From assembly GCA_902794835.1 (NCBI GenBank), contig CADBIO010000001.1, forward strand, positions 23,174-87,173: DNA of 64,000 bases. The letters run 5' to 3'. The translations under genes were made by a program, and so were the position numbers. This document shows, piece by piece, positions 5,412 through 58,993 of the stretch. Positions within the stretch are counted from its first letter, which is position 1. The number at the start of each line of letters is the position of its first letter. This stretch comes from an uncultured Erysipelotrichaceae bacterium (GTDB lineage: Bacteria; Bacillota_I; Bacilli_A; RFN20; CAG-826). The notes under the pieces are model-generated. The model was given only the letters and a program-made list of their open reading frames with translations, did not search any database and was not told the DNA's origin.

Positions 5412-6050
5412 ATGCAAATCGCGAAACTTCATTTCCCGCCAGAGGAAAGCTGCAATACCTATGTGGTCGGAAATCATGGACGGCCTTGTCTCGTCATTGA
5501 CCCAGGATCCAACCTTAACGGATGCCTTGATCGTTATTTAGATAAAGCCCATTCCTCGCTTACTGCGATTTTATTGACCAATGGTCATTATGATCACATC
5601 ACCGGCTTGTCTTCCTTAAGGCACCAAGCTCCAGTATATCTCGGTCAAGGAGAAGAACCTTTTTTGACAGATCCCTATCTGAATTTGAGCAAAACATGGA
5701 AGGAGAATCCTTTGATTTTGGATCACATCAAGCCAATCCCTTTGTTTGACGGAGAGGAATTCACGCTAAACGAAATTAAAATCCAGATCATTGCTACCCC
5801 ATTTCACACTGGCGGAAGCGTTTGCTATTACCTCCCAGAGGAACGCGTTCTTTTCAGTGGCGACACGTTGTTTCACCTTGGAATCGGGAGGGTAGACCTT
5901 CCTACCGGTGCTCATCACAAAATCGAATCATCGCTTCGTAAACTGTTATCTCTTCCGCCTGAGACAAAAGTCTATCCAGGGCATGGCGAAAATACCGTTC
6001 TAGGCAATGAATTTCGCTATAATGAGTACCTCAATTGCCTTTTTAAGTAG
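5412..6050 (+). CDS. MBL-fold metallo-hydrolase (glyoxalase II-like)
   Basis: HxHxDH motif (NGHYDHITG) and 212-aa length typical of the family. Confidence 0.7.
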   Translation: MQIAKLHFPPEESCNTYVVGNHGRPCLVIDPGSNLNGCLDRYLDKAHSSLTAILLTNGHYDHITGLSSLRHQAPVYLGQGEEPFLTDPYLNLSKTWKENPLILDHIKPIPLFDGEEFTLNEIKIQIIATPFHTGGSVCYYLPEERVLFSGDTLFHLGIGRVDLPTGAHHKIESSLRKLLSLPPETKVYPGHGENTVLGNEFRYNEYLNCLFK

Positions 6051-8152: not shown

Positions 8153-10111
8153 ATGACCGACATCGAAAAAGCAGAGAAGAATTACACCGCTAGAGACATC
8201 GAAGTTTTAAGCGAATTAGAGGGCGTCAGAAAGCGTCCTGGCATGTATATTGGGAGCACCAATTTAAGTGGCCTTCATCACTTGGTTTGGGAAATCATCG
8301 ACAATGCGGTTGATGAGGCTGTCAATGGCTACGGCAACAAAATCACGGTCACCATTTTGCGTGATGGCTCTCTTCAAGTCGAAGACGAAGGACGTGGCAT
8401 CCCGGTCGACATTCACCCAAAGGCCAAAATCCCTGCGGTTCAATTGATTTATACCACCCTTCACTCCGGCGGCAAATTCAATAGCAAAAATTATCAAGTC
8501 TCTGGCGGGTTACACGGCGTCGGAGCGACGGTCACTAATGCTCTTTCCGAACTTGTGGAAGTCACGATCTATCGTGATAACAAAATTTATTTCATCTCTT
8601 TCCATAACGGCGGTCAGCTTTTATCGCCGCTGAAAGTCATTGGGACGACCAATAAGCACGGAACCACGGTCCATTTCCGCCCAGACCCAACCATTTTCCC
8701 GAGCGTTAAATTCTCTTGGGATACCATTTATAACCGCCTGGAAGAAAAAAGCTACCTTTTGACTGGCGTCCATTTCATCCTGAAAGACCAAAAGACCGGA
8801 AACAGCCATGATTTCTACACCGAACACGGCTTGCGGGAATATGTTCAATCCCTGACACAAAACAAAACCCCTTTAGGGGATGTCATTGATTTTGTCGACA
8901 AAACCAATCCGATCAACGTCGAAGTGGCTATGCAGTGGTGCCTTAAGGATTACAACGAAAACATTCTTTCTTACGCCAACGATGTCAAAACTGGCGATGG
9001 CGGTACCCATGAAATCGGCTTTAAAACATCCCTGACTAAAACCCTAAACGATTGGGCCCAGCAAAATGAACTCATTAAACCTAACCAAACCATTGATGGA
9101 TCCGATATTCGTGAAGGTCTAACAGCTGTTATTTCAGTCAAAGTCCCAGAAGAAAAGCTCGAATATGAGGGCCAAACCAAAGGGAAACTCGGCACCCCAG
9201 AGGCGACTTCAGTCGTTTCCAATGCCCTCCAGAATTTCTTTATCTATTATTTAAATGAGCACAAGGAATTCGCCATCGACCTGATTAAGAAGTGCCAGGC
9301 CTCAAAAGAGGCGAGAGAAGCGGCGAGAAAAGCCAAAGAAGCTGCTCGCGGAGCGAAAAAGAAAGTTGTCGATTATGTGATTTCCGATAAACTGGCCAGC
9401 GCCCAATCCAAAGATTATAAGAACAACGAATTGTTCATTGTTGAAGGCGATTCCGCTGGCGGCTCTGCCAAAACGGGCCGCGATCGTCTCCACCAAGCCA
9501 TCCTCCCGCTCCGTGGAAAACCATTGAATACCGATAGCGTTTCCATGGAAAAAATCGTTAGCAACGCAGAATTTGCGACCCTCATTCAAACCATTGGCGC
9601 TGGTGTGGGCGCAGATTTCGATATTACCGAATCGCATTATGGCAAAATCATTATCATGACTGATGCCGATACCGATGGCGCCCATATTCAGACACTGCTA
9701 TTGACGTTCTTCTATAATTTCATGAAACCGTTGATTGATGCAGGGATGATTTATATCGCCCAGCCGCCACTTTATCGTGTCTACAAAAAGAGCGACCCAT
9801 CCAAACATATCTATTGTTGGGATGATAAAGAATTAGAGGCCGCCAAAATCAAAATCGGCGCAGGATATGGCATCAACCGTTACAAAGGGCTTGGCGAAAT
9901 GAACGCCAACCAATTGGCAGAAACCACGATGGACAAAAAGAAACGCGTCTTGATGCAAGTCAAGATCGATGACCCTTTGGTGGTGGAAAAACGCATCGGT
10001 ATTTTGATGGGCAAAGATTCGCAATCACGTTGGAATTGGATCCAAGAGAATGTCACCTTTAACGAAGAAGACAGCTTCTTATCGGAAATTGAGAAAGAAA
10101 CAGGCAAATAA
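8153..10111 (+). CDS. parE: DNA topoisomerase IV subunit B (GyrB-family ATPase)
   Basis: GHKL ATPase and TOPRIM domains. Adjacent to a ParC-type A subunit and downstream of plsY, the B. subtilis yneS-parE-parC arrangement. Confidence 0.75.
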   Translation: MTDIEKAEKNYTARDIEVLSELEGVRKRPGMYIGSTNLSGLHHLVWEIIDNAVDEAVNGYGNKITVTILRDGSLQVEDEGRGIPVDIHPKAKIPAVQLIYTTLHSGGKFNSKNYQVSGGLHGVGATVTNALSELVEVTIYRDNKIYFISFHNGGQLLSPLKVIGTTNKHGTTVHFRPDPTIFPSVKFSWDTIYNRLEEKSYLLTGVHFILKDQKTGNSHDFYTEHGLREYVQSLTQNKTPLGDVIDFVDKTNPINVEVAMQWCLKDYNENILSYANDVKTGDGGTHEIGFKTSLTKTLNDWAQQNELIKPNQTIDGSDIREGLTAVISVKVPEEKLEYEGQTKGKLGTPEATSVVSNALQNFFIYYLNEHKEFAIDLIKKCQASKEAREAARKAKEAARGAKKKVVDYVISDKLASAQSKDYKNNELFIVEGDSAGGSAKTGRDRLHQAILPLRGKPLNTDSVSMEKIVSNAEFATLIQTIGAGVGADFDITESHYGKIIIMTDADTDGAHIQTLLLTFFYNFMKPLIDAGMIYIAQPPLYRVYKKSDPSKHIYCWDDKELEAAKIKIGAGYGINRYKGLGEMNANQLAETTMDKKKRVLMQVKIDDPLVVEKRIGILMGKDSQSRWNWIQENVTFNEEDSFLSEIEKETGK

Positions 10112-10113
10112 TT

Positions 10114-12717
10114 ATGGCGAAGAGAGTGAAAGAAGAACCGATCATCAAGGAAAACATCATCAGCGATACTCTTGATGAATTAATGGGCGCAAAATACGCC
10201 ATTTATGCAAAAGACGTCATCCAAGACCGTGCCATCCCTGACGCCAGAGATGGTCTCAAACCCGTTCAACGCCGCATCATCTATGATATGGCCAAAACGG
10301 GAAACACCATCGATAAACCGACCAAAAAATGCGCTCACATCGTTGGTGACGTTATGGGCAAATATCACCCACACGGCGACTCCTCGATTTACGAAGCTTT
10401 GGTCCATATGTCCCAGACATGGGCCTACCGTTATCCTTTGATCGATTTCCAAGGGAACAACGGCTCTATCGATGGAGATGGCGCAGCCGCCTATCGTTAT
10501 ACAGAGGCAAGACTCAGCGCCTTGTCTAACGAACTTGTCGCCGATTTGGAACGTGATGCCGTCGATATGGAGCTCACTTTCGACGACACTGAACTTGAAC
10601 CGACTGTTTTGCCATGCCGTTTTCCGAATCTTTTGGCGAATGGCACCGAAGGAATCGCCGTTGGCATCGCCACTAGCATTCCGCCACATAATCTTCGTGA
10701 ACTCGTTCAAGCGATTAATTACCGCATCAAACATCCGAATTGTGACCTTGAAGCCTTGATGAGATATGTTCCTGGCCCGGACTTCCCGACCGGCGGCGTC
10801 ATCTTTGACGGCCAAGGATTGAAGGACATTTACAGCACCGGCCGCGGCAGAGTCGTCGTTTCTTCGAAATATGAATTCATCAACGATGCCAAACAAAAGC
10901 AAATTATCATCACGGAGATTCCTTATCGCACCAACAAATCGGAACTCGTCAAATCCATCGACCAAATCCGCCACGACAAAACGATTCCTGGCATCGAAGA
11001 AGTGCGCGATGAGACCGACAAAACAGGCTTACGCATCGCCATCGATTTAAAAGATGAAGCCAAACCAGAGGCGATCATCGCCTATTTGCTTAACAAAACC
11101 GAACTCAAAGTCTCCTATAGCGCCCATATGGTGGCTATCGTGGATAATCGTCCGAAGACGATGAATCTCATCGATTATTGCGATTGTTATATCGCCCATC
11201 AGTTGGACGTCATCTCGCGGCGTTCCCGCTTCAATTTGGCGAAGGATCAAGCGAGATTGAACATCGTTTCTGGGTTAATCAAAGCCATTTCCATTTTGGA
11301 TGAGGTCGTCGACACCATTCGCCATTCGGAAAACAAAGCTGACTCTAAATTCAACATCGAGAGCAAATTCGGCTTCAATGAGCCACAAGCAGAAGCCATC
11401 GTCACAATGCCTCTTTATAAACTTTCCCATACCGATGTAGAGGTTTTGGAAAATGAGATGAAGAGCCTTGAAGAGGACATCCGTGAGCTTAATGGTTTGC
11501 TTTCCGATCAGGAAAAACGCGAGGATTTGATCATCAACGATCTCAATCGCATCGCCAAAATCTATGGCGATAAGAGAAAAACGGAAATTCGTCCCGCCGA
11601 AGAAGAAGCGGTCTCTATCAACAAACGGGACCTCATCGCCAAAGAAGATGTTATGGTGGTTGCCACAAGGGATGGCTATATCAAACGTTCCAGCTTGAAG
11701 AGTTGGAAAGGATCTGGTGGCCATAATGGGGCCCGTCCTGGCGTCAAAGCGGGGGATGCTTTCGTTTTCGAGGCCCAATGCACGACGACGGATTATCTGA
11801 TTTTATTCACCGTCAAAGGCAATTATGTCTATATCCCAATCAACGAAATCAAAGAGGCAAAATGGAACGACGAAGGCTTCCATGTCTCTTCTTTGGTTAA
11901 TGTCACCCCAGACGATAAATTCATCTCTGGTTTTGCGGTCCGTAAATTCCGCAGCGATTTGAATGTCGTCATGCTTACGAAAAACGGGCAAATCAAGCGT
12001 ATCAGGCTCGATTCTTTGGAAGTCGTTAGAAGATCAAAAGCCATCGGCGCCATTCGCTTGAGCAAAGGCGATGAGCTGATTTCTGTGATCTATACCTCCG
12101 GAAATTCCAACATCTTCGTCGCTTCTAAGGAAGGCAAAGCGATCTTCTATAACGAAAATGAGATCTTGCTTTCTAATCCAAGAACCTCCGGCCTCAAGGC
12201 CGGTTCTTTCCACGGCAAGGAGTTGGCGGGGCTGTTGGGTTTTGCCGAAAACGAGAAACTCGGCAAAATCTTGATGGTTACCGATCGTGGGTGTACAAGA
12301 ATCTTCGACATGAACAAAATCCCGCTGTCGCATCGCTTGGATAAAGTTTTTAACTTATATGACATGTTCAAAAAAGAGCCACACGTTCTGATTTATCTAG
12401 ACAAAGTCGGTGACAAGAACGCTCCATATAGTCTCGATGCCATCTTGCAAGATTCTACCCGCACCGACATTGTTTTCGACGATTTCTTCTTAACGCCGAT
12501 GGAAAAATATGTGAAACGCCCAGACTCTTTCCCAGCCAAAGCCAGGATCGCTCGAATCTCGATTGAGGAGTCGCCGTTGCTTGACGAGACGATTCCCTCA
12601 TTTGAGCCACCCATCAAAGAAGAGCCAAAACCTGAGCCAACCGAGGATAAGATCATTGAATCCAGCGGAAACTTCGAACAGATTTCCTTGTTTGACGATT
12701 TAAACGATGATGAATAA
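10114..12717 (+). CDS. parC: DNA topoisomerase IV subunit A
   Basis: Active-site region [20 protein letters not shown] has ParC-type VQRR rather than GyrA VHRR. 867 aa with an acidic C-terminal tail. Confidence 0.75.
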
Positions 12718-53878: not shown

Positions 53879-55198
53879 TTATTTTTTGCTGCTTTCGATT
53901 TTCTCGCGGCTGACTTTCTTATAAAGGAAGATCTCTTTCCTCACTTTGATATTTAACGAGCCGTCGCGATAATAATTGGCAGCCCCACGTTGTTTATGGA
54001 CGGGTTTAAGGGCTTTTCGGTGATGGCGACAGAAAATGGTGGGAAGAATCCAGCCCAGCCCCAGGAAGATGATCACGAAGGCAAAAAGGAAGGCGCTGGC
54101 GCTCCATTCTTCCTGAGAATTGGCGTAAAGGGCTCCCCCAATTGCGCCTAAAAGGCCACCCGAAAGGAGATAAAAGCCGAAGAAGAAAAGCAAATATTTG
54201 CCAATCGAAAGAGGCAAATTACCTACCATTTTCCCCGTTTGGGCATTCATTCCAAAGGTGAATTGTTTTTCTTTCCATTTGGTTGAGAGAATCCAAACCG
54301 GGAATAAAGCGTAATAGACAGAGGTGTTATAAAGCCGTAAAGAGGAAGTTTCATAACGGAGGTTCTCATAACCGTTGATGGTAGAGGCGAATTTATCGAT
54401 CGTTCCTTCTTTCACACGGTCGTTGGCGCGAGGGGCGCAGGCGTCTTTGTCGACATCATATTTATCGGAAAGATGGCCCGCTAAGAAGGCGGCGTTAAAT
54501 TGTCTTGCTCCTTCAAAATCGAATGGCTCGATGGATTCCATCAAATCATCTGGCATCGTCGAAGAGCCATCGACGGGAATGTGGTCGAAACCGATGTCGC
54601 CCTCACGGACGATTCGATAATATTTGGTTTCGGTGACCCGATAATCGCCGTCACGATATTTTCTTACAACCTCGCCACGGAAATTGACGCGGCCTGCGCA
54701 ATCAGCGTTAAAAACCCAGAAAGGCTCATATAAGCCTTTGACTTCGGCGATTTTGTTTTCCTGTTTGAAATGTTTCGAAAGAAAGAGTTTTTTCTTCAAG
54801 AATTTGGCCAACGCCACCTGAGTCGAAGCCTGGTCATATTGGAAAGGAATGACATAATCTGGTTTCAAAGAGCCGGAAAGTCTTCCCGAAAGGATAACTG
54901 GAGATTGGCAAAACGGACACGTTGTGGCGCTGGTGTTCTCGTCAGCGATGATTTCCGCCCCGCAGGAGTCACAATGATAGAGACTGAGGTTGGATAATTC
55001 TTCTTCCGTATATTCGGAGGAAGAAGCCTTCCAATTCATCTCATCGGGCTTGGCATCTGCCAGTTCTTTGTTGTAATTTTCGACAGTGTCGATGTCGAAT
55101 TCGCCATCGCAATAAGGGCAGACGATTTTCTGCGAATGCGAGTCGAATTGCAAAGGGCCGCCACAATTGGGGCACTTATATTCAATGGCCTTAGACAT
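53879..55198 (-). CDS. zinc-ribbon membrane protein (YdjG/YdjH-like partner of the SPFH protein)
   Basis: Two N-terminal CxxC...CxxC zinc ribbons, a central soluble domain and C-terminal TM helices. AAGGA SD. Co-operonic with the upstream SPFH gene across an 11-bp gap. Confidence 0.55.
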   Translation of the reverse strand: MSKAIEYKCPNCGGPLQFDSHSQKIVCPYCDGEFDIDTVENYNKELADAKPDEMNWKASSSEYTEEELSNLSLYHCDSCGAEIIADENTSATTCPFCQSPVILSGRLSGSLKPDYVIPFQYDQASTQVALAKFLKKKLFLSKHFKQENKIAEVKGLYEPFWVFNADCAGRVNFRGEVVRKYRDGDYRVTETKYYRIVREGDIGFDHIPVDGSSTMPDDLMESIEPFDFEGARQFNAAFLAGHLSDKYDVDKDACAPRANDRVKEGTIDKFASTINGYENLRYETSSLRLYNTSVYYALFPVWILSTKWKEKQFTFGMNAQTGKMVGNLPLSIGKYLLFFFGFYLLSGGLLGAIGGALYANSQEEWSASAFLFAFVIIFLGLGWILPTIFCRHHRKALKPVHKQRGAANYYRDGSLNIKVRKEIFLYKKVSREKIESSKK

Positions 55199-55208
55199 GG
55201 GTCAGTCC

Positions 55209-56546
55209 TTATTTTTTATCGTTATCGTCGAATGGGTCGCCACATTCTGGGCAGAATTTCGGTGGGTTTTTCGGATCTTTTGGCTCCCAGCCACATTTAT
55301 CGCATCTATAAAGCGGCTCACCAGCAGGTTTTTTGGCACCGCATTCGGCGCAGAATTTGCCTTTGTTGACCGTACCGCAGGTCGGGCATTTCCAACCCGC
55401 GCTTTCTTCTGGTTTCTTCGTACCACATTCTGGGCAGAATTTTCCCGTGACTTCGGCACCGCATTTCGGGCATTTCCAAGAATCGGCGGCTGGTTTTGGT
55501 TGGGAAGCTGCTTGTTGTTGTTTTTGCTCTTGCTGCTGGGCTTCCATCTGGTAGAAATTGTTCGCGTTCATGCCACCCGCTTGCGCAGCCATATTTAAGC
55601 CATAGAAACCCATAGCCGCCCCATTGGCGTTGGAGGCAGCGCCTTTCATGGCTTCGCCTTGGGCCTCGACTAAGGAAGCACCAGCCATGCCAGGGTTTCT
55701 ATAAACGGCTTGACGTTGGAGATTTTTGATAAGGTCTTCGTCTTCTTTTGGAAGAGTGACGGAGGAAAGGGCGATAGAAACCACTTCTAAGCCGCGTGTT
55801 TCCAACCATTTCTCGGTAAGAACTTCATTCATCGCTTTTTCTAATTCGGTGATGTGGGCGACAATTTGATTGGGACGAATCTCTAAGGCAGATAATTTGC
55901 CAAAAGCAGGTTGCAACGCGGAGATAAATTCGCTCTTTAGGGTGTTGTCTAATTCGCTGCGGTTATAAGATTCCGAAACATTGCCACAGACATTCTGATA
56001 GAAAAGGATTGGGTTGCCAATACGATAGGAGAAGGTGCCGAAGCATCGGACGGAAACATCGATATCAAGCCCGATATTACTATCAACGACTCGGAATGGG
56101 ACCGGATTGGCGGTTCCGAATTTATTGTCGAGGATTTCTTTGATGTTGAAATAATAGACACGTTGATCTTTGCCACTGTCTCCGCCATAGCCAATACGAT
56201 TCCACATCGTCTTGAACATGCCAGCCACGCCTTGGAAAAGGTTGCCGCAGAAAACAGAAGGCTCAGAGCCTTTGTCATAAGTGTATTGTCCAGGTTCAGA
56301 GCAGATATCCATGATCTTGCCTTGTTCGACGATGATCATGCACTGGCCATCAGCGACAGCGATACCAGAACCGTTGGAGATAATATTGTCGTTGCCTCTA
56401 TGATTCGAACCGAATCTTCCGGTGACTCTTTTTTCACCTTTTACCATCAAAACGGTCTTGTCGATTGATTCGCAATAGAAAAATTCTTTCCACTGATCTG
56501 CGAGGGTGCCTCTGACGGAGCCGCTCACTGCTTTGATTAAACCCAT
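55209..56546 (-). CDS. SPFH/band-7-like protein (COG4260, YdjI-like) with Gln-rich linker and triple C-terminal zinc ribbon
   Basis: N-terminal region resembles the B. subtilis YdjI family (PspA-associated). The C-terminus has three tandem CP.CG....KFC.ECG zinc ribbons after a QQQEQKQQQ linker. Confidence 0.65.
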   Translation of the reverse strand: MGLIKAVSGSVRGTLADQWKEFFYCESIDKTVLMVKGEKRVTGRFGSNHRGNDNIISNGSGIAVADGQCMIIVEQGKIMDICSEPGQYTYDKGSEPSVFCGNLFQGVAGMFKTMWNRIGYGGDSGKDQRVYYFNIKEILDNKFGTANPVPFRVVDSNIGLDIDVSVRCFGTFSYRIGNPILFYQNVCGNVSESYNRSELDNTLKSEFISALQPAFGKLSALEIRPNQIVAHITELEKAMNEVLTEKWLETRGLEVVSIALSSVTLPKEDEDLIKNLQRQAVYRNPGMAGASLVEAQGEAMKGAASNANGAAMGFYGLNMAAQAGGMNANNFYQMEAQQQEQKQQQAASQPKPAADSWKCPKCGAEVTGKFCPECGTKKPEESAGWKCPTCGTVNKGKFCAECGAKKPAGEPLYRCDKCGWEPKDPKNPPKFCPECGDPFDDNDKK

Positions 56547-56654
56547 AATAGATTCTCCTTGTGTGCTTTCGAAAGTTTACGAATTTTATTGTAAACAATA
56601 CGGATTCTTTTTTCATCTTAATTTGATGACTCTCCTGATTAGGAGATAGGAAAA

Positions 56655-56873
56655 ATGTCCATTTCAGAGCGTTTTTACGGTTTTCGCCTATTCAATTTTG
56701 TGTCAAAGTATGTATGTGATCATGGCGCCCTAGACCAATTTCGATACATCTTTGCTTCTGGTAGAATCACGCTATCTAATTCCAAGTCAAAGCGATTTTT
56801 ATTGAGTTTTATCATTCTATGTGATTGCATAGCAGCAAAAATTCATCCGTGGTTGTCGATGACTACCACTTAG
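56655..56873 (+). CDS. hypothetical small protein (72 aa), convergent with and overlapping the DUF1016 gene stop
   Basis: Good SD (AGGAGATAGG) 4 nt upstream of ATG. No homology recognised. Confidence 0.25.
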   Translation: MSISERFYGFRLFNFVSKYVCDHGALDQFRYIFASGRITLSNSKSKRFLLSFIILCDCIAAKIHPWLSMTTT

Positions 56874-57880
56874 CGGGGATTCTTTTTGGTTTCCTCGAAC
56901 AATGTTTGATATTCAATTAGTTTTTCTTTTAATGCATTGGTGTCGATTAGTTGGGTTGAATATGTTGCAACCGCAGTTGGTGAAATAGATCTAGAAGAAG
57001 CTAGTTCCACTACTGAATCGTTTTTAGAGGCACATAAAATAATCCCCACACTTGGATTTTCATTGGGTTTCTTTTCGTATTTATCTAAGGCGGCAAGATA
57101 AAAATCCATTTTTGAAACAAATTCTGGTTGGAATTTATCCACTTTTAGTTCAAAAGCTACTAAACATGAATATGTTCTGTTGTAGAATAGCAAATCAATA
57201 TAAAAGTCTTCTCCACCAACATTGATTCGATGTTCTTGCTCAATAAAAGTAAAATCCTTCCCAATTTCTAAAATAAAGTTTTTTAAATTACTTATGATTG
57301 CATCTTTTAAGTCTTTCTCTTTGTAGTTGTTGGGCAAATCAAGGAATTCCAGCGAATAGGCATCTAATAATTTAGTATTTGGTCCATCTTCTTCTCCCAC
57401 CACTGGCTCTAAACTTTCCAAGGCATTTCCGTTAGATAATAAATATCTTTCATAATAATGACTTTGGATCTGCCTATTGAGTTCCCTTTTGGAATAATTA
57501 TTTTTAATGCAAAGACGAATATAAAATTCTTTTTCCTCGATTGTTTTTGTTCCTTGCAAAATTAGCAAATTATTAGTCCAACTCAATTGTGTCACCAGTG
57601 GTGAGACAATTATATTGTCTCTATATGTCTCATAAAATTGAATCATTCTATATAGACCGGCTCTGTTGAATCCTTTTAAGGATGGATATTGAGTTTTTAT
57701 AGTTATGACTAGATTATCAATTGTCTTTGATCCCCAACCGCCTGATGCAACTTTTTTTGACAAATATTTTCCTACTTCGTAATACATTGTCACTAATTCT
57801 TCATTAATTTTTCGATAAGCGTTTTTTCGATGAAGTTGAATGATATTTATAATTTCTTTAAATTCAGATTCTTTTTCCAT
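56870..57880 (-). CDS. PDDEXK-family nuclease, DUF1016 (YhcG-like)
   Basis: N-terminal DUF1016 helical domain (YYEVGKYL...WGSKTID.L...FPSLKGFNRAGLYRM.QFYETY) and C-terminal restriction-endonuclease-like core (DLLFYN...LVAFELK). AT-rich. Confidence 0.7.
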   Translation of the reverse strand: MEKESEFKEIINIIQLHRKNAYRKINEELVTMYYEVGKYLSKKVASGGWGSKTIDNLVITIKTQYPSLKGFNRAGLYRMIQFYETYRDNIIVSPLVTQLSWTNNLLILQGTKTIEEKEFYIRLCIKNNYSKRELNRQIQSHYYERYLLSNGNALESLEPVVGEEDGPNTKLLDAYSLEFLDLPNNYKEKDLKDAIISNLKNFILEIGKDFTFIEQEHRINVGGEDFYIDLLFYNRTYSCLVAFELKVDKFQPEFVSKMDFYLAALDKYEKKPNENPSVGIILCASKNDSVVELASSRSISPTAVATYSTQLIDTNALKEKLIEYQTLFEETKKNPR

Positions 57881-57885
57881 ATTAA

Positions 57886-58056
57886 CTATTCCTCCACTGT
57901 TTCAAATAAATCGACACCGGGAATAAGGGCGCATCCGCCCCAATTACCATGAATTTGTCCGATGCCATCGATGTGCTCAACAATGCCGACTTTGCCACTG
58001 TAATCTGGTTCCCCATCCATTCGGATGATTTTAATTTTGTCTCCAACTTTAACCAT
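57886..58056 (-). CDS. DUF4314-family small protein (56 aa)
   Basis: Hand-translated MVKVGDKIKIIRMDGEPDYSGKVGIVEHIDGIGQIHGNWGGCALIPGVDLFETVEE. AGGAGA SD 8 nt upstream. Its stop overlaps the SD of the DUF1016 gene. Below the ORF track cutoff. Confidence 0.55.
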   Translation of the reverse strand: MVKVGDKIKIIRMDGEPDYSGKVGIVEHIDGIGQIHGNWGGCALIPGVDLFETVEE

Positions 58057-58650
58057 CAATAAAATCTCCTTTCGTCAGTTAGACAGCACGTGTCTTCAAA
58101 AGGAGATAAATAAAAACCATCACCATAATGAAAACACCTTTTGTAGTTATCGACTCAGTCCCGTAACTACTGGTGTTACATCATCCTCGTGATGGCCACA
58201 TGCTCAATTGAACAACAATTGTAGGGAGCGCGATGGTCCTCTTGAACGCAAGGGCGTCTGCCAACGCGACCCCTTCCGCTTGCGTCTCATACCATTACTG
58301 GGCAATACTTTCCCTATTACCACACCCTAACACGTAGTGTGATAGTTTATCTATCCATTGGCCTCAGTTTGCCTGCGTATGGTTGACTTTGCTATTGCTA
58401 GTTCATAGCGCCCGTGGTCTAGATAGATGAACAAGATTATTATAGCAAAAGCTACGCTTCGTAGGTAGAGCCACGAGAATTTAGTCGCTTTTGTCGACGG
58501 AATCAATGCGGCTGGAATTATCATGATCCGAATTGTTTCGCTTTAATGGTCGCTCTTGTTTCTTTGTTCTCGTCATATCAAAGCAAATTGAAAGCACTCA
58601 ATCCAAGAAATCATCATATCAGTTAGAAACGCTCGAACTAGCGAATAAAA

Positions 58651-58710: not shown

Positions 58711-58850
58711 AAAGGTTTACCTTATTTAATACAAAATGGGCCTTTCACTGTTTCTTTCTGTAAATGTCGATGAAATATGTGCAATAGATCAAGCGTAGGT
58801 GTAATAGGTAAAAAAGTTGTTAAAAATAAGACTAAAATATACAAAAAAGT

Positions 58851-58919
58851 GCCAAAAAAGGCACAAAAAAAGCATTTTTTCACCAATAATGGGTACAAAA
58901 TGCAGTTTTTTATCGATGG
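58851..58919. repeat. direct repeat copy 2 containing the tRNA-Arg terminator hairpin
   Basis: GCCAAAAAaGGCaCAAAAAAAGcAtttt...GCAGTTTTTTATCGATGG. On the minus strand it forms GTGCC-TTTTTT-GGCAC plus a T-run directly after the tRNA CCA. Confidence 0.45.
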
Positions 58920-58993
58920 CGCGCCTGAACCGACTCGAACGGTTGACCCACAGCTTAGAAGGCTGTTGCTCTATCCAACTGAGCTACAGGCGC
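58917..58993 (-). tRNA. tRNA-Arg (anticodon TCT), CCA encoded
   Basis: Minus strand GCGCCTGTAGCTCAGTTGGATAGAGCAACAGCCTTCTAAGCTGTGGGTCAACCGTTCGAGTCGGTTCAGGCGCGCCA folds as a canonical cloverleaf with 7-bp acceptor, D and T arms. The anticodon loop is CTTCTAA. Confidence 0.85.

Follow-up and report, generated by a model that had tools for sequence, protein, structure and literature searches.

What controls two AT-rich genes that lie downstream of a tRNA gene in an uncultured Erysipelotrichaceae bacterium, and do the two genes belong together? A sequence-only reading of a 64,000-nt stretch of contig CADBIO010000001.1 (the window, from whose first letter all positions are counted unless another locus is named) had picked out a two-gene cassette on the minus strand, in which a small DUF4314 protein is followed by a DUF1016 nuclease, and had proposed the pair as an undescribed defence or toxin-like module. 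We could confirm that observation, with the open reading frames (ORFs), the families and the low GC content all borne out, and its interpretation is partly supported. What it had missed is a structured 5' leader RNA, conserved and about 345 nt long (58090-58432, minus strand), in front of the two genes, which we recognised by blastn, nhmmer and RNAalifold and which precedes other, unrelated cargo in related genomes. We hold with moderate confidence that the locus is a horizontally acquired effector cassette, gated by this leader RNA and placed in a variable spot downstream of tRNA-Arg.

By searching with the window in blastn, we found a block of some 360 nt (58450 to 58090) whose homology ends sharply and which is conserved at more than 20 loci with differing cargo; it is 70-87% identical in loci whose flanks and downstream genes differ. 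A pattern for the motif core, run over species-representative genomes, returned 59 loci, 58 of which belong to uncultured rumen or gut Bacilli, Erysipelotrichaceae or "Mollicutes" metagenome-assembled genomes (MAGs). The counts of leader structure given below rest on an alignment of 58 related leader copies, and the 58-copy nhmmer profile matches the window at 58089-58450 (E = 2.5e-102). Conservation begins exactly at an extended -10 box, TGCTATAAT (58447-58439, minus strand), whose TGnTATAAT columns are conserved, while the sequence farther upstream is not; at the other end it stops about 20 nt before the Shine-Dalgarno sequence (SD) of the first gene. TGCTATAAT appears to act as the promoter, and the interval between the tRNA gene and the small ORF is filled by this putative promoter and the conserved structured RNA, not by empty spacer. 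Among 2.9 million viral contigs the leader pattern was matched only once, a near-absence that we count in favour of a gated cassette. The sole IMG/VR "viral" contig concerned is L227, where the match (9781-10128) stands at the end of the fetched stretch.

We then compared the leader with known RNA families. By cmscan, Rfam family RF02941, "COG3943 RNA", covers the 3' domain of the leader (58134-58232, minus strand) with 81.0 bits against a gathering score of 71.8 (E = 3.5e-14); all 108 model positions are matched and P1, P2 and P3 are present. The gathering score was also passed by 20 of the 21 related copies tested, and no other Rfam family, including any riboswitch family, matched at the leader at E <= 1. 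The COG3943 RNA motif was reportedly put forward by Weinberg and colleagues in 2017 as a candidate structured RNA; a full-text literature search returned nothing on an RNA under the name "COG3943". In relatives, as in its namesake context, the motif lies upstream of RhuM/COG3943 genes, whereas DUF4314 and DUF1016 lie downstream of it here. A second difference, in a comparison with the Rfam model only, is one of extent: the stretch of RNA that covaries has about three times the length of the model, with helices H1, C and D on its 5' side, helix H4 and an anti-SD box on its 3' side, and the model's unpaired GCUCC tail taken up in helix H2. Judged from these comparisons, the Rfam motif describes only part of the leader, which represents COG3943 RNA in a longer form.

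Covariation supports five helices that the Rfam model does not contain (H1, H2, H4, C and D). By RNAalifold and pair counts, 98.1% of alignment cells were paired compared with 38-50% when the 3' partners were slid, changes on both sides were observed in 299 cells compared with 28-46, and covariation reached 0.405 compared with at most 0.10; none of 500 shuffles reached the observed values. Over the two sets of pairs counted (44 + 11), covariation was 0.405 and 0.459, against at most 0.17 with slid partners. Even with the inflation that comes from sharing one alignment, the compensatory changes are far above the slid-partner controls. The window sequence alone gave a minimum free energy z-score of -3.76.

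First, H1 (58344-58336 with 58326-58318, minus strand) shows compensatory double changes in all nine of its pairs and is paired in 98.9% of cells, its loop carrying the near-invariant GUGUUAGG. Second, the long-range helix H2 (58316-58311 with 58227-58222, minus strand) joins an upstream UAGGGA to the GCUCC tail; it is paired in 100% of cells, with GC/AU and GC/UA/CG switches, and encloses a central domain made of helices C (58295-58291 with 58237-58233) and D (58284-58279 with 58252-58247, both minus strand), which are 78% paired compared with 35-46% with slid partners and show a covariation of 0.459. Third, H4 (GGCCAU at 58197-58192 with AUGGUU at 58120-58115, minus strand) closes the 3' domain, reaching past the 3' end of the Rfam model; 99.7% of its cells are paired and AU switches to GC in 10 sequences. 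In the helices of the Rfam model itself, P1, P3a and P3b, two-sided changes are seen in 3-4 pairs each, and the paired share of cells is 92-98%. Moreover, the near-invariant GUGUUA of the H1 loop (58327-58335) is complementary to UAACAC of the P3 5' strand (58173-58180), which otherwise pairs with GGUGUU farther downstream. The two segments may form a pseudoknot or an alternative helix; as neither of them varies, covariation cannot speak to it. We also considered a 57-aa ORF (58351-58524) and antisense ORFs over the leader as genes, and rejected them: their apparent conservation is that of the leader sequence they overlap, the helices varying by compensatory changes.

Past H4 there is a U-rich stretch and then a near-invariant box, AUCUCCUUU (58107-58099), which in the window perfectly complements the SD of the small ORF, AAAGGAGAU (58072-58064), the two forming an expression platform at 58064-58107 on the minus strand. 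An anti-SD:SD hairpin is predicted in nearly all 58 copies, independent of which gene comes first, with a median duplex energy of -10.4 kcal/mol compared with -5.7 kcal/mol for shuffles. With a strict filter, a start codon with SD and ORF lies 88-130 nt (median 112) past the core ...GUAACACCAG in 48 of the 58 copies, and the motif is invariably co-oriented with the ORF, at a fixed distance. These features suggest that the leader is a cis-acting translation mask, possibly combined with attenuation, as P3 (AACACC...GGUGUU) followed by UUUC is terminator-like. In this it resembles riboswitches and other SD-sequestering leaders: a structured domain that is large, conserved and rich in invariant unpaired nucleotides sits at a set place in the 5' untranslated region, its 3' element masks the SD, and a terminator-like hairpin is possible. 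It differs from riboswitches in that the genes behind it are unrelated toxic or defence-candidate effectors and not a metabolic pathway.

P3 also raises the possibility that the RNA is free-standing, either as a trans-acting small RNA (sRNA) or as an RNA antitoxin of type III-like systems, made in excess since transcription would mostly end at P3 and its U-run. Rfam classes RF02941 as Gene/sRNA, the A-rich 5' side of P3 and the conserved UUUU after it resemble a terminator, and type III toxin-antitoxin (TA) systems likewise begin with an RNA, followed by a terminator and then a toxic protein. However, H4 and the anti-SD box, conserved or covarying, lie downstream of this putative terminator, and therefore the read-through RNA must matter and be under selection. 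The constant orientation and spacing of motif and ORF also speak against a free-standing RNA, and such an RNA would need to neutralise proteins as unrelated as a nuclease, Fic/Doc, BrnT and small orphan proteins. We found no tandem repeat family in 58090-58450, thus nothing like the tandem repeats of ToxI, and a type III TA system was rejected on the ground that the upstream RNA has no tandem direct repeats. We consider a free-standing RNA quite improbable.

To describe what stands behind a cis-acting leader, the ORFs downstream of 57 non-redundant leaders were clustered and annotated by Pfam and PADLOC. DUF1016 alone was found in 15 of the 57 and a 117-aa protein without family in 13. DUF4314 with DUF1016, intact or as a remnant, accounts for 13-16, a count that is inflated because some loci were fetched using both proteins as queries. 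The remainder includes RhuM-Fic/Doc (PADLOC PDC-S23/S05; 6/57), a BrnA-like protein with a BrnT-like ORF before it (3/57), DUF4314 with a 108-aa orphan (2-3/57) and DUF4314 alone (1/57). DUF4314 fills the first-ORF slot in about one third of leader copies and, outside the 57 tallied, is followed by a RhuM-like gene at locus L018. Several single MAGs hold at least two leader copies with different cargo. At L034 (1700-5100) two leader cassettes even stand in tandem downstream of polC and a tRNA gene, in the order leader, a 327-aa DUF1016 protein with 32% identity to the window nuclease, a second leader, a degenerate DUF4314 ORF and a 331-aa DUF1016 protein with 74.5% identity.

The orphan 117-aa and 108-aa proteins are among the commonest leader cargo, and neither is matched by Pfam, by PADLOC or by PHROGs. 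The 117-aa proteins (L022, L024, L026, L041, L047 and others) have in common with the 108-aa ones (L011, L031, L234) a K-G-x-H-P-(F/S)-(I/L)-V-like stretch. At L234 (2353-3921) the 108-aa gene is inserted between DUF4314 and a 5'-truncated nuclease, which suggests that cargo is exchanged just past the first ORF.

In the window, the cargo consists of two genes on the minus strand. The first of the operon, at 57886-58056, encodes 56 aa from an ATG after the SD (the ORF listing also allows a TTG start, 57886-58059) and belongs to DUF4314 (PF14192, 31.5 bits against a gathering cut-off of 27). The second, at 56870-57880, encodes the 336-aa YhcG/DUF1016 nuclease. The two are only 5 nt apart: the GGAGG of the nuclease (57895-57891) falls within the last codons of the small ORF, whose stop TAG occupies 57888-57886, and the nuclease ATG follows at 57880-57878. 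Tight translational coupling from the small ORF to the nuclease is plausible, as the sequence-only reading had proposed.

The nuclease can be assigned with some precision. It belongs to the YhcG/DUF1016 family (COG4804), with both Pfam domains above gathering score (PF17761 DUF1016_N, E = 1e-38 and 132.7 bits; PF06250 YhcG_C, E = 4e-49 and 166.9 bits; cut-offs about 33). A PADLOC PDC-S02 HMM matches residues 4-333 (E = 2e-114), and therefore the earlier statement that DUF1016 nucleases have no assigned system is inaccurate, the family being listed as a defence candidate; the same check of the region gave no model for the small protein. The match runs over the full length, and both the two-domain architecture and the E-D-ExK motif are those of PDC-S02. 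In contrast to PDC-S02, which is defined as a single gene, the nuclease is here the second gene behind a structured leader and a small ORF. The family has the catalytic motif E-D-E(I/L/V)K (PMC1189080). The window nuclease carries it intact as E-D-ExK, E188, D229, E244 and K246 being conserved in at least 95% of 23 homologues. In an AF2 model (pLDDT 79), the C-terminal domain matches the nuclease domains of NucS/EndoMS, Can2 and Bax1 (best E = 7e-5), supporting a restriction-endonuclease-like fold for that domain, while the 160-residue helical DUF1016_N domain at the N-terminus has no structural match. No PDB chain matches the nuclease by sequence, and neither the PDB sequence search nor the searched literature gave a solved structure or a biochemical study of the family. 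From motif and model, the protein is predicted to have DNA nuclease activity. Both DUF1016 and RhuM genes are enriched beside invertible restriction-modification and BREX loci, and DUF1016 is known from the vicinity of type I restriction-modification loci. PDC-S02 is a candidate defence system, and a defence role of DUF1016 is putative.

Is the DUF4314 gene, then, the dedicated partner of this nuclease? One could imagine a two-component module, either toxin-antitoxin or sensor-effector, in which the small protein acts on the nuclease, to neutralise or to activate it, and the RNA has no part. Besides the tight coupling of the ORFs, such a module would explain why DUF4314 or a remnant of it stands before every nuclease examined at >=67% identity to ours, in several contexts that include a resolvase neighbourhood and a locus syntenic with the window (mutS2-uvrC...tig) that carries HipBA in place of SPFH. 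A natural read-through fusion would also fit: P0297, a 390-aa protein on one 3.4-kb contig, joins DUF4314 to the nuclease with the stop TGA read as TGG, and is either a real fusion or a sequencing error. Finally, the small-protein homologues found in phages could be antitoxin mimics.

However, the two genes decay independently of each other. The DUF4314 ORF is truncated or deleted at L027, in both L034 copies and at L042, beside 331-332-aa nucleases that keep E188, D229, E244 and K246 and thus the E-D-ExK motif; conversely, the nuclease is lost or truncated at L054, L064, L067 and L070 beside an intact DUF4314. Since either gene can be lost alone, the pair fits an addiction module poorly, and this speaks against an antitoxin role of the small protein. 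Fifteen leader-led DUF1016 genes are without DUF4314, which in turn also stands before RhuM-like and 108-aa cargo. Co-occurrence of the two families elsewhere is real; it is confined to the nuclease subclade at >=67% identity, and the genes are unlinked in most DUF1016 and most DUF4314 loci. A search at E <= 1e-3 gave 550 DUF4314 cluster representatives. Among metagenomic DUF4314 loci, 6 of 80 have the leader and about 3-5 of 80 adjoin a DUF1016 gene, and none of 80 viral loci has the leader; 70 of the 80 metagenomic and all 80 viral loci are without the leader and, with few exceptions, without DUF1016. An obligate pair is therefore not what these distributions describe, given that most leader-led DUF1016 genes have no DUF4314 and that DUF4314 relatives occur on at least 234 viral contigs.

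The properties of the small protein point in the same direction. Thirteen residues are invariant over 39 homologues, and GQ(I/L)HGxWGGCALIP is a motif that varies little or not at all; judging by this conservation, the ORF is a real, constrained protein. Its AF2 model (pLDDT 93.5) is a small beta-barrel, whose best PDB matches, weak ones (E = 0.05-0.3), are KOW/SH3-like (uL24, Spt5/NusG, Rpp29, NdhS). This is not a typical antitoxin DNA-binding fold such as HTH, RHH or AbrB, and PADLOC has no model for it. The relatives on the IMG/VR contigs, at least 234 in number, are 54-76% identical, Lak megaphages carry one at 44%, and the protein falls in phrog_3782, a PHROG without functional annotation. 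In phages its neighbours vary (terminase, portal, topoisomerase, helicase, methyltransferase, HNH) and no constant neighbour gene was found. DUF4314 thus appears to be mainly a phage gene. Ten large DUF4314-containing proteins (400-1100 aa) yield no functional hint because a Pfam scan showed no further domain in them, and a full-text literature search for "DUF4314" returned no paper.

Likeness to type II and type III TA systems lies in the small upstream component, protein or RNA, that precedes a potentially toxic enzyme, and one alternative cargo is a genuine BrnT/BrnA pair. Here, in contrast, the small protein is dispensable beside an intact nuclease, and the RNA has no tandem repeats and is common to unrelated cargo. 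In type II systems an antitoxin is not expected to be lost beside an intact toxin, a loss that L027, L034 and L042 do present. A toxin-antitoxin reading is weak, and a dedicated DUF4314-DUF1016 module as a whole seems unlikely to us.

The surroundings of the cassette bear on its origin. GC content is 0.315-0.343 across 56800-57999, compared with 0.43-0.51 in the gene for the SPFH/Band-7 protein and 0.44-0.475 in uvrC, which agrees with the earlier view of an accessory, foreign-looking cassette. In related genomes with the same cassette the flanks have a GC content of 0.29-0.41. A cassette of 0.32 in a genome of 0.43-0.48, together with these lower-GC relatives, fits acquisition from a lower-GC relative. 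The upstream landmark is a tRNA-Arg gene (anticodon TCT; 58917-58993, minus strand; ARAGORN; Rfam tRNA, 68 bits). The claim of a tRNA locus stands insofar as this gene lies on the same strand, but it does not adjoin the small ORF, from which it is about 860 nt away with the leader in between. In many related loci, tRNA genes are found at about 0.1-1.5 kb from the leader or the cargo.

Near-identical contigs, which come from rumen metagenomes, all carry the cassette with both ORFs intact. By contrast with these, the conspecific strain L067 (4400-8168, 98% identity) loses homology at window position 57305, cutting the nuclease at about residue 192, and past this breakpoint has an AraC-like regulator and other genes in place of the SPFH operon; read from the alignment, this is a strain-level rearrangement inside the cassette. 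This, with relatives that carry other cargo at syntenic sites, bears out the idea of a variable tRNA-proximal spot. Directly after the tRNA-Arg CCA, the window, L001 and L006 have a 209-bp segment (58711-58919) that strains L002 and L003 lack. A 13-nt direct repeat, CCATCGATAAAAA, the only repeat found, flanks the segment, and a similar T-rich hairpin follows each copy of the repeat. The segment has the look of either an integration footprint or a duplicated tRNA 3' flank.

Such an indel at the tRNA 3' end might mean that the cassette is an inert or decaying mobile-element remnant. Alternatively, the nuclease could have a housekeeping role in DNA repair or recombination. Either gene is often pseudogenised in relatives, the one test of PDC-S02 gave no protection, and the nuclease both resembles the repair nuclease NucS/EndoMS and adjoins uvrC and mutS2. 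The resemblance is that the C-terminal AF2 domain superposes on 2vld and 5gke over about 120 residues (E = 7e-5 to 2e-4) and that there is a weak NCBIfam match; it is restricted to the catalytic domain, and at 21 bits against a cut-off of 216 the protein is not a NucS orthologue. Against decay, neither ORF is broken in the window or in any of the near-identical strains, purifying selection on DUF4314, the nuclease active site and the RNA helices is strong, and no integrase or transposase gene lies within 5 kb. Against repair, the co-cargo families are of defence or TA type, and most other copies lie in a neighbourhood other than that of uvrC. We put little weight on either a remnant or a repair function, both taken together being improbable.

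The ORFs within 5 kb of the cassette are mutS2, uvrC and genes for an SPFH protein, a zinc-ribbon protein and a HAD hydrolase; in the ORF list with Pfam no integrase, transposase or recombinase gene is found there. An integrative island or integron was rejected, there being neither a recombinase nor bounding att or attC sites. Of the downstream neighbours (53879-56546), one encodes a 445-aa SPFH/Band_7_1 protein whose C-terminus carries double zinc ribbons, the other a zinc-ribbon membrane protein of 439 aa, and this pair recurs beside leader cassettes of other genomes. At L008, L012, L014, L051 and L062, two genes stand divergently beside the leader on its upstream side, one for an HTH_3 protein of 68 aa and the other for a DUF6442 membrane protein of 114 aa. 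At L008, L012 and L062 the SPFH and zinc-ribbon operon lies just beyond these two genes, and therefore the cassette appears in either orientation beside that operon. L014 also has a c-di-GMP-I riboswitch (5828-5903; 50 bits against a gathering score of 35) about 1 kb from the leader copy, on the opposite strand. As for the convergent 72-aa ORF at 56655-56873 (plus strand) of the earlier reading, it exists, with AGGAGA upstream, and is probably not a gene: it has no match in Pfam, PADLOC, NCBIfam or PHROG, has no counterpart 3' of nucleases elsewhere that are 74-80% identical, and is conserved only among near-identical strains. We rejected it as a component of the system for want of conservation.

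In the gated-cassette explanation that we prefer, an extended -10 promoter would be followed by the leader of about 345 nt, DUF4314 and the coupled DUF1016 nuclease. The leader would hold a potentially self-harmful DNA nuclease translationally off, possibly also through premature termination at the P3 hairpin and its U-run. A signal would remodel the RNA and free the SD; DUF4314 would then be translated and, by coupling, the nuclease too, which would cut DNA, the outcome being phage defence or growth arrest. DUF4314 itself would be a phage-type small beta-barrel that takes the first-ORF slot in some copies, an accessory or modulator that the cassette can do without, and not an antitoxin.

Several points weigh against this explanation. 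We infer the promoter, the switch and its signal, as we do any defence role of the cassette. The same alignment of related sequences was used both to predict and to count the RNA structure, so that some measures are inflated, and, since SDs are themselves conserved, a box that complements any of them is to some degree to be expected. Rfam files RF02941 as "sRNA", and the P3 hairpin with its U-run could end an independent small RNA. The invariable presence of DUF4314 or its remnant in the >=67% subclade, together with the P0297 fusion, makes it possible that its tie to the nuclease is stronger than "optional accessory" conveys. Furthermore, in the only report found, one PDC-S02 representative was tested against T4, T5 and T7 in Escherichia coli and was not listed among the four protective systems.

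A bolder and rather unlikely version would make the leader a new sensory RNA class, riboswitch-like or a protein- or RNA-binding switch, that gates, in Bacilli of gut and rumen, a whole regulon whose antiphage or toxic effectors can stand in for one another (DUF1016 nuclease, RhuM-Fic, BrnTA and the two small orphans), with the abundant phage DUF4314 proteins as counter-defence factors or as trigger mimics of the chromosomal ones.

RF02941, PDC-S02 and DUF4314 are known kinds; novelty seems to lie in three things, the extension of the RNA beyond its model, the SD-masking platform common to the copies and the regulon of cargo genes. If translation truly depends on a switch in the leader, this would be a rare case in which a large structured RNA has candidate immune or toxic effectors, and not metabolism, under its control. 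An orphan Rfam motif thereby gains a testable function and a corrected, threefold larger architecture, and the leader offers a handle for new effectors behind it, such as the family-less 117-aa and 108-aa proteins. For annotation, "single-gene" candidates such as PDC-S02 and PDC-S23/S05 can belong to a common RNA-led cassette, and the cassette described here provides a concrete system in which to approach the roles of DUF1016/PDC-S02 nucleases and of the DUF4314 proteins that are widespread in phages.

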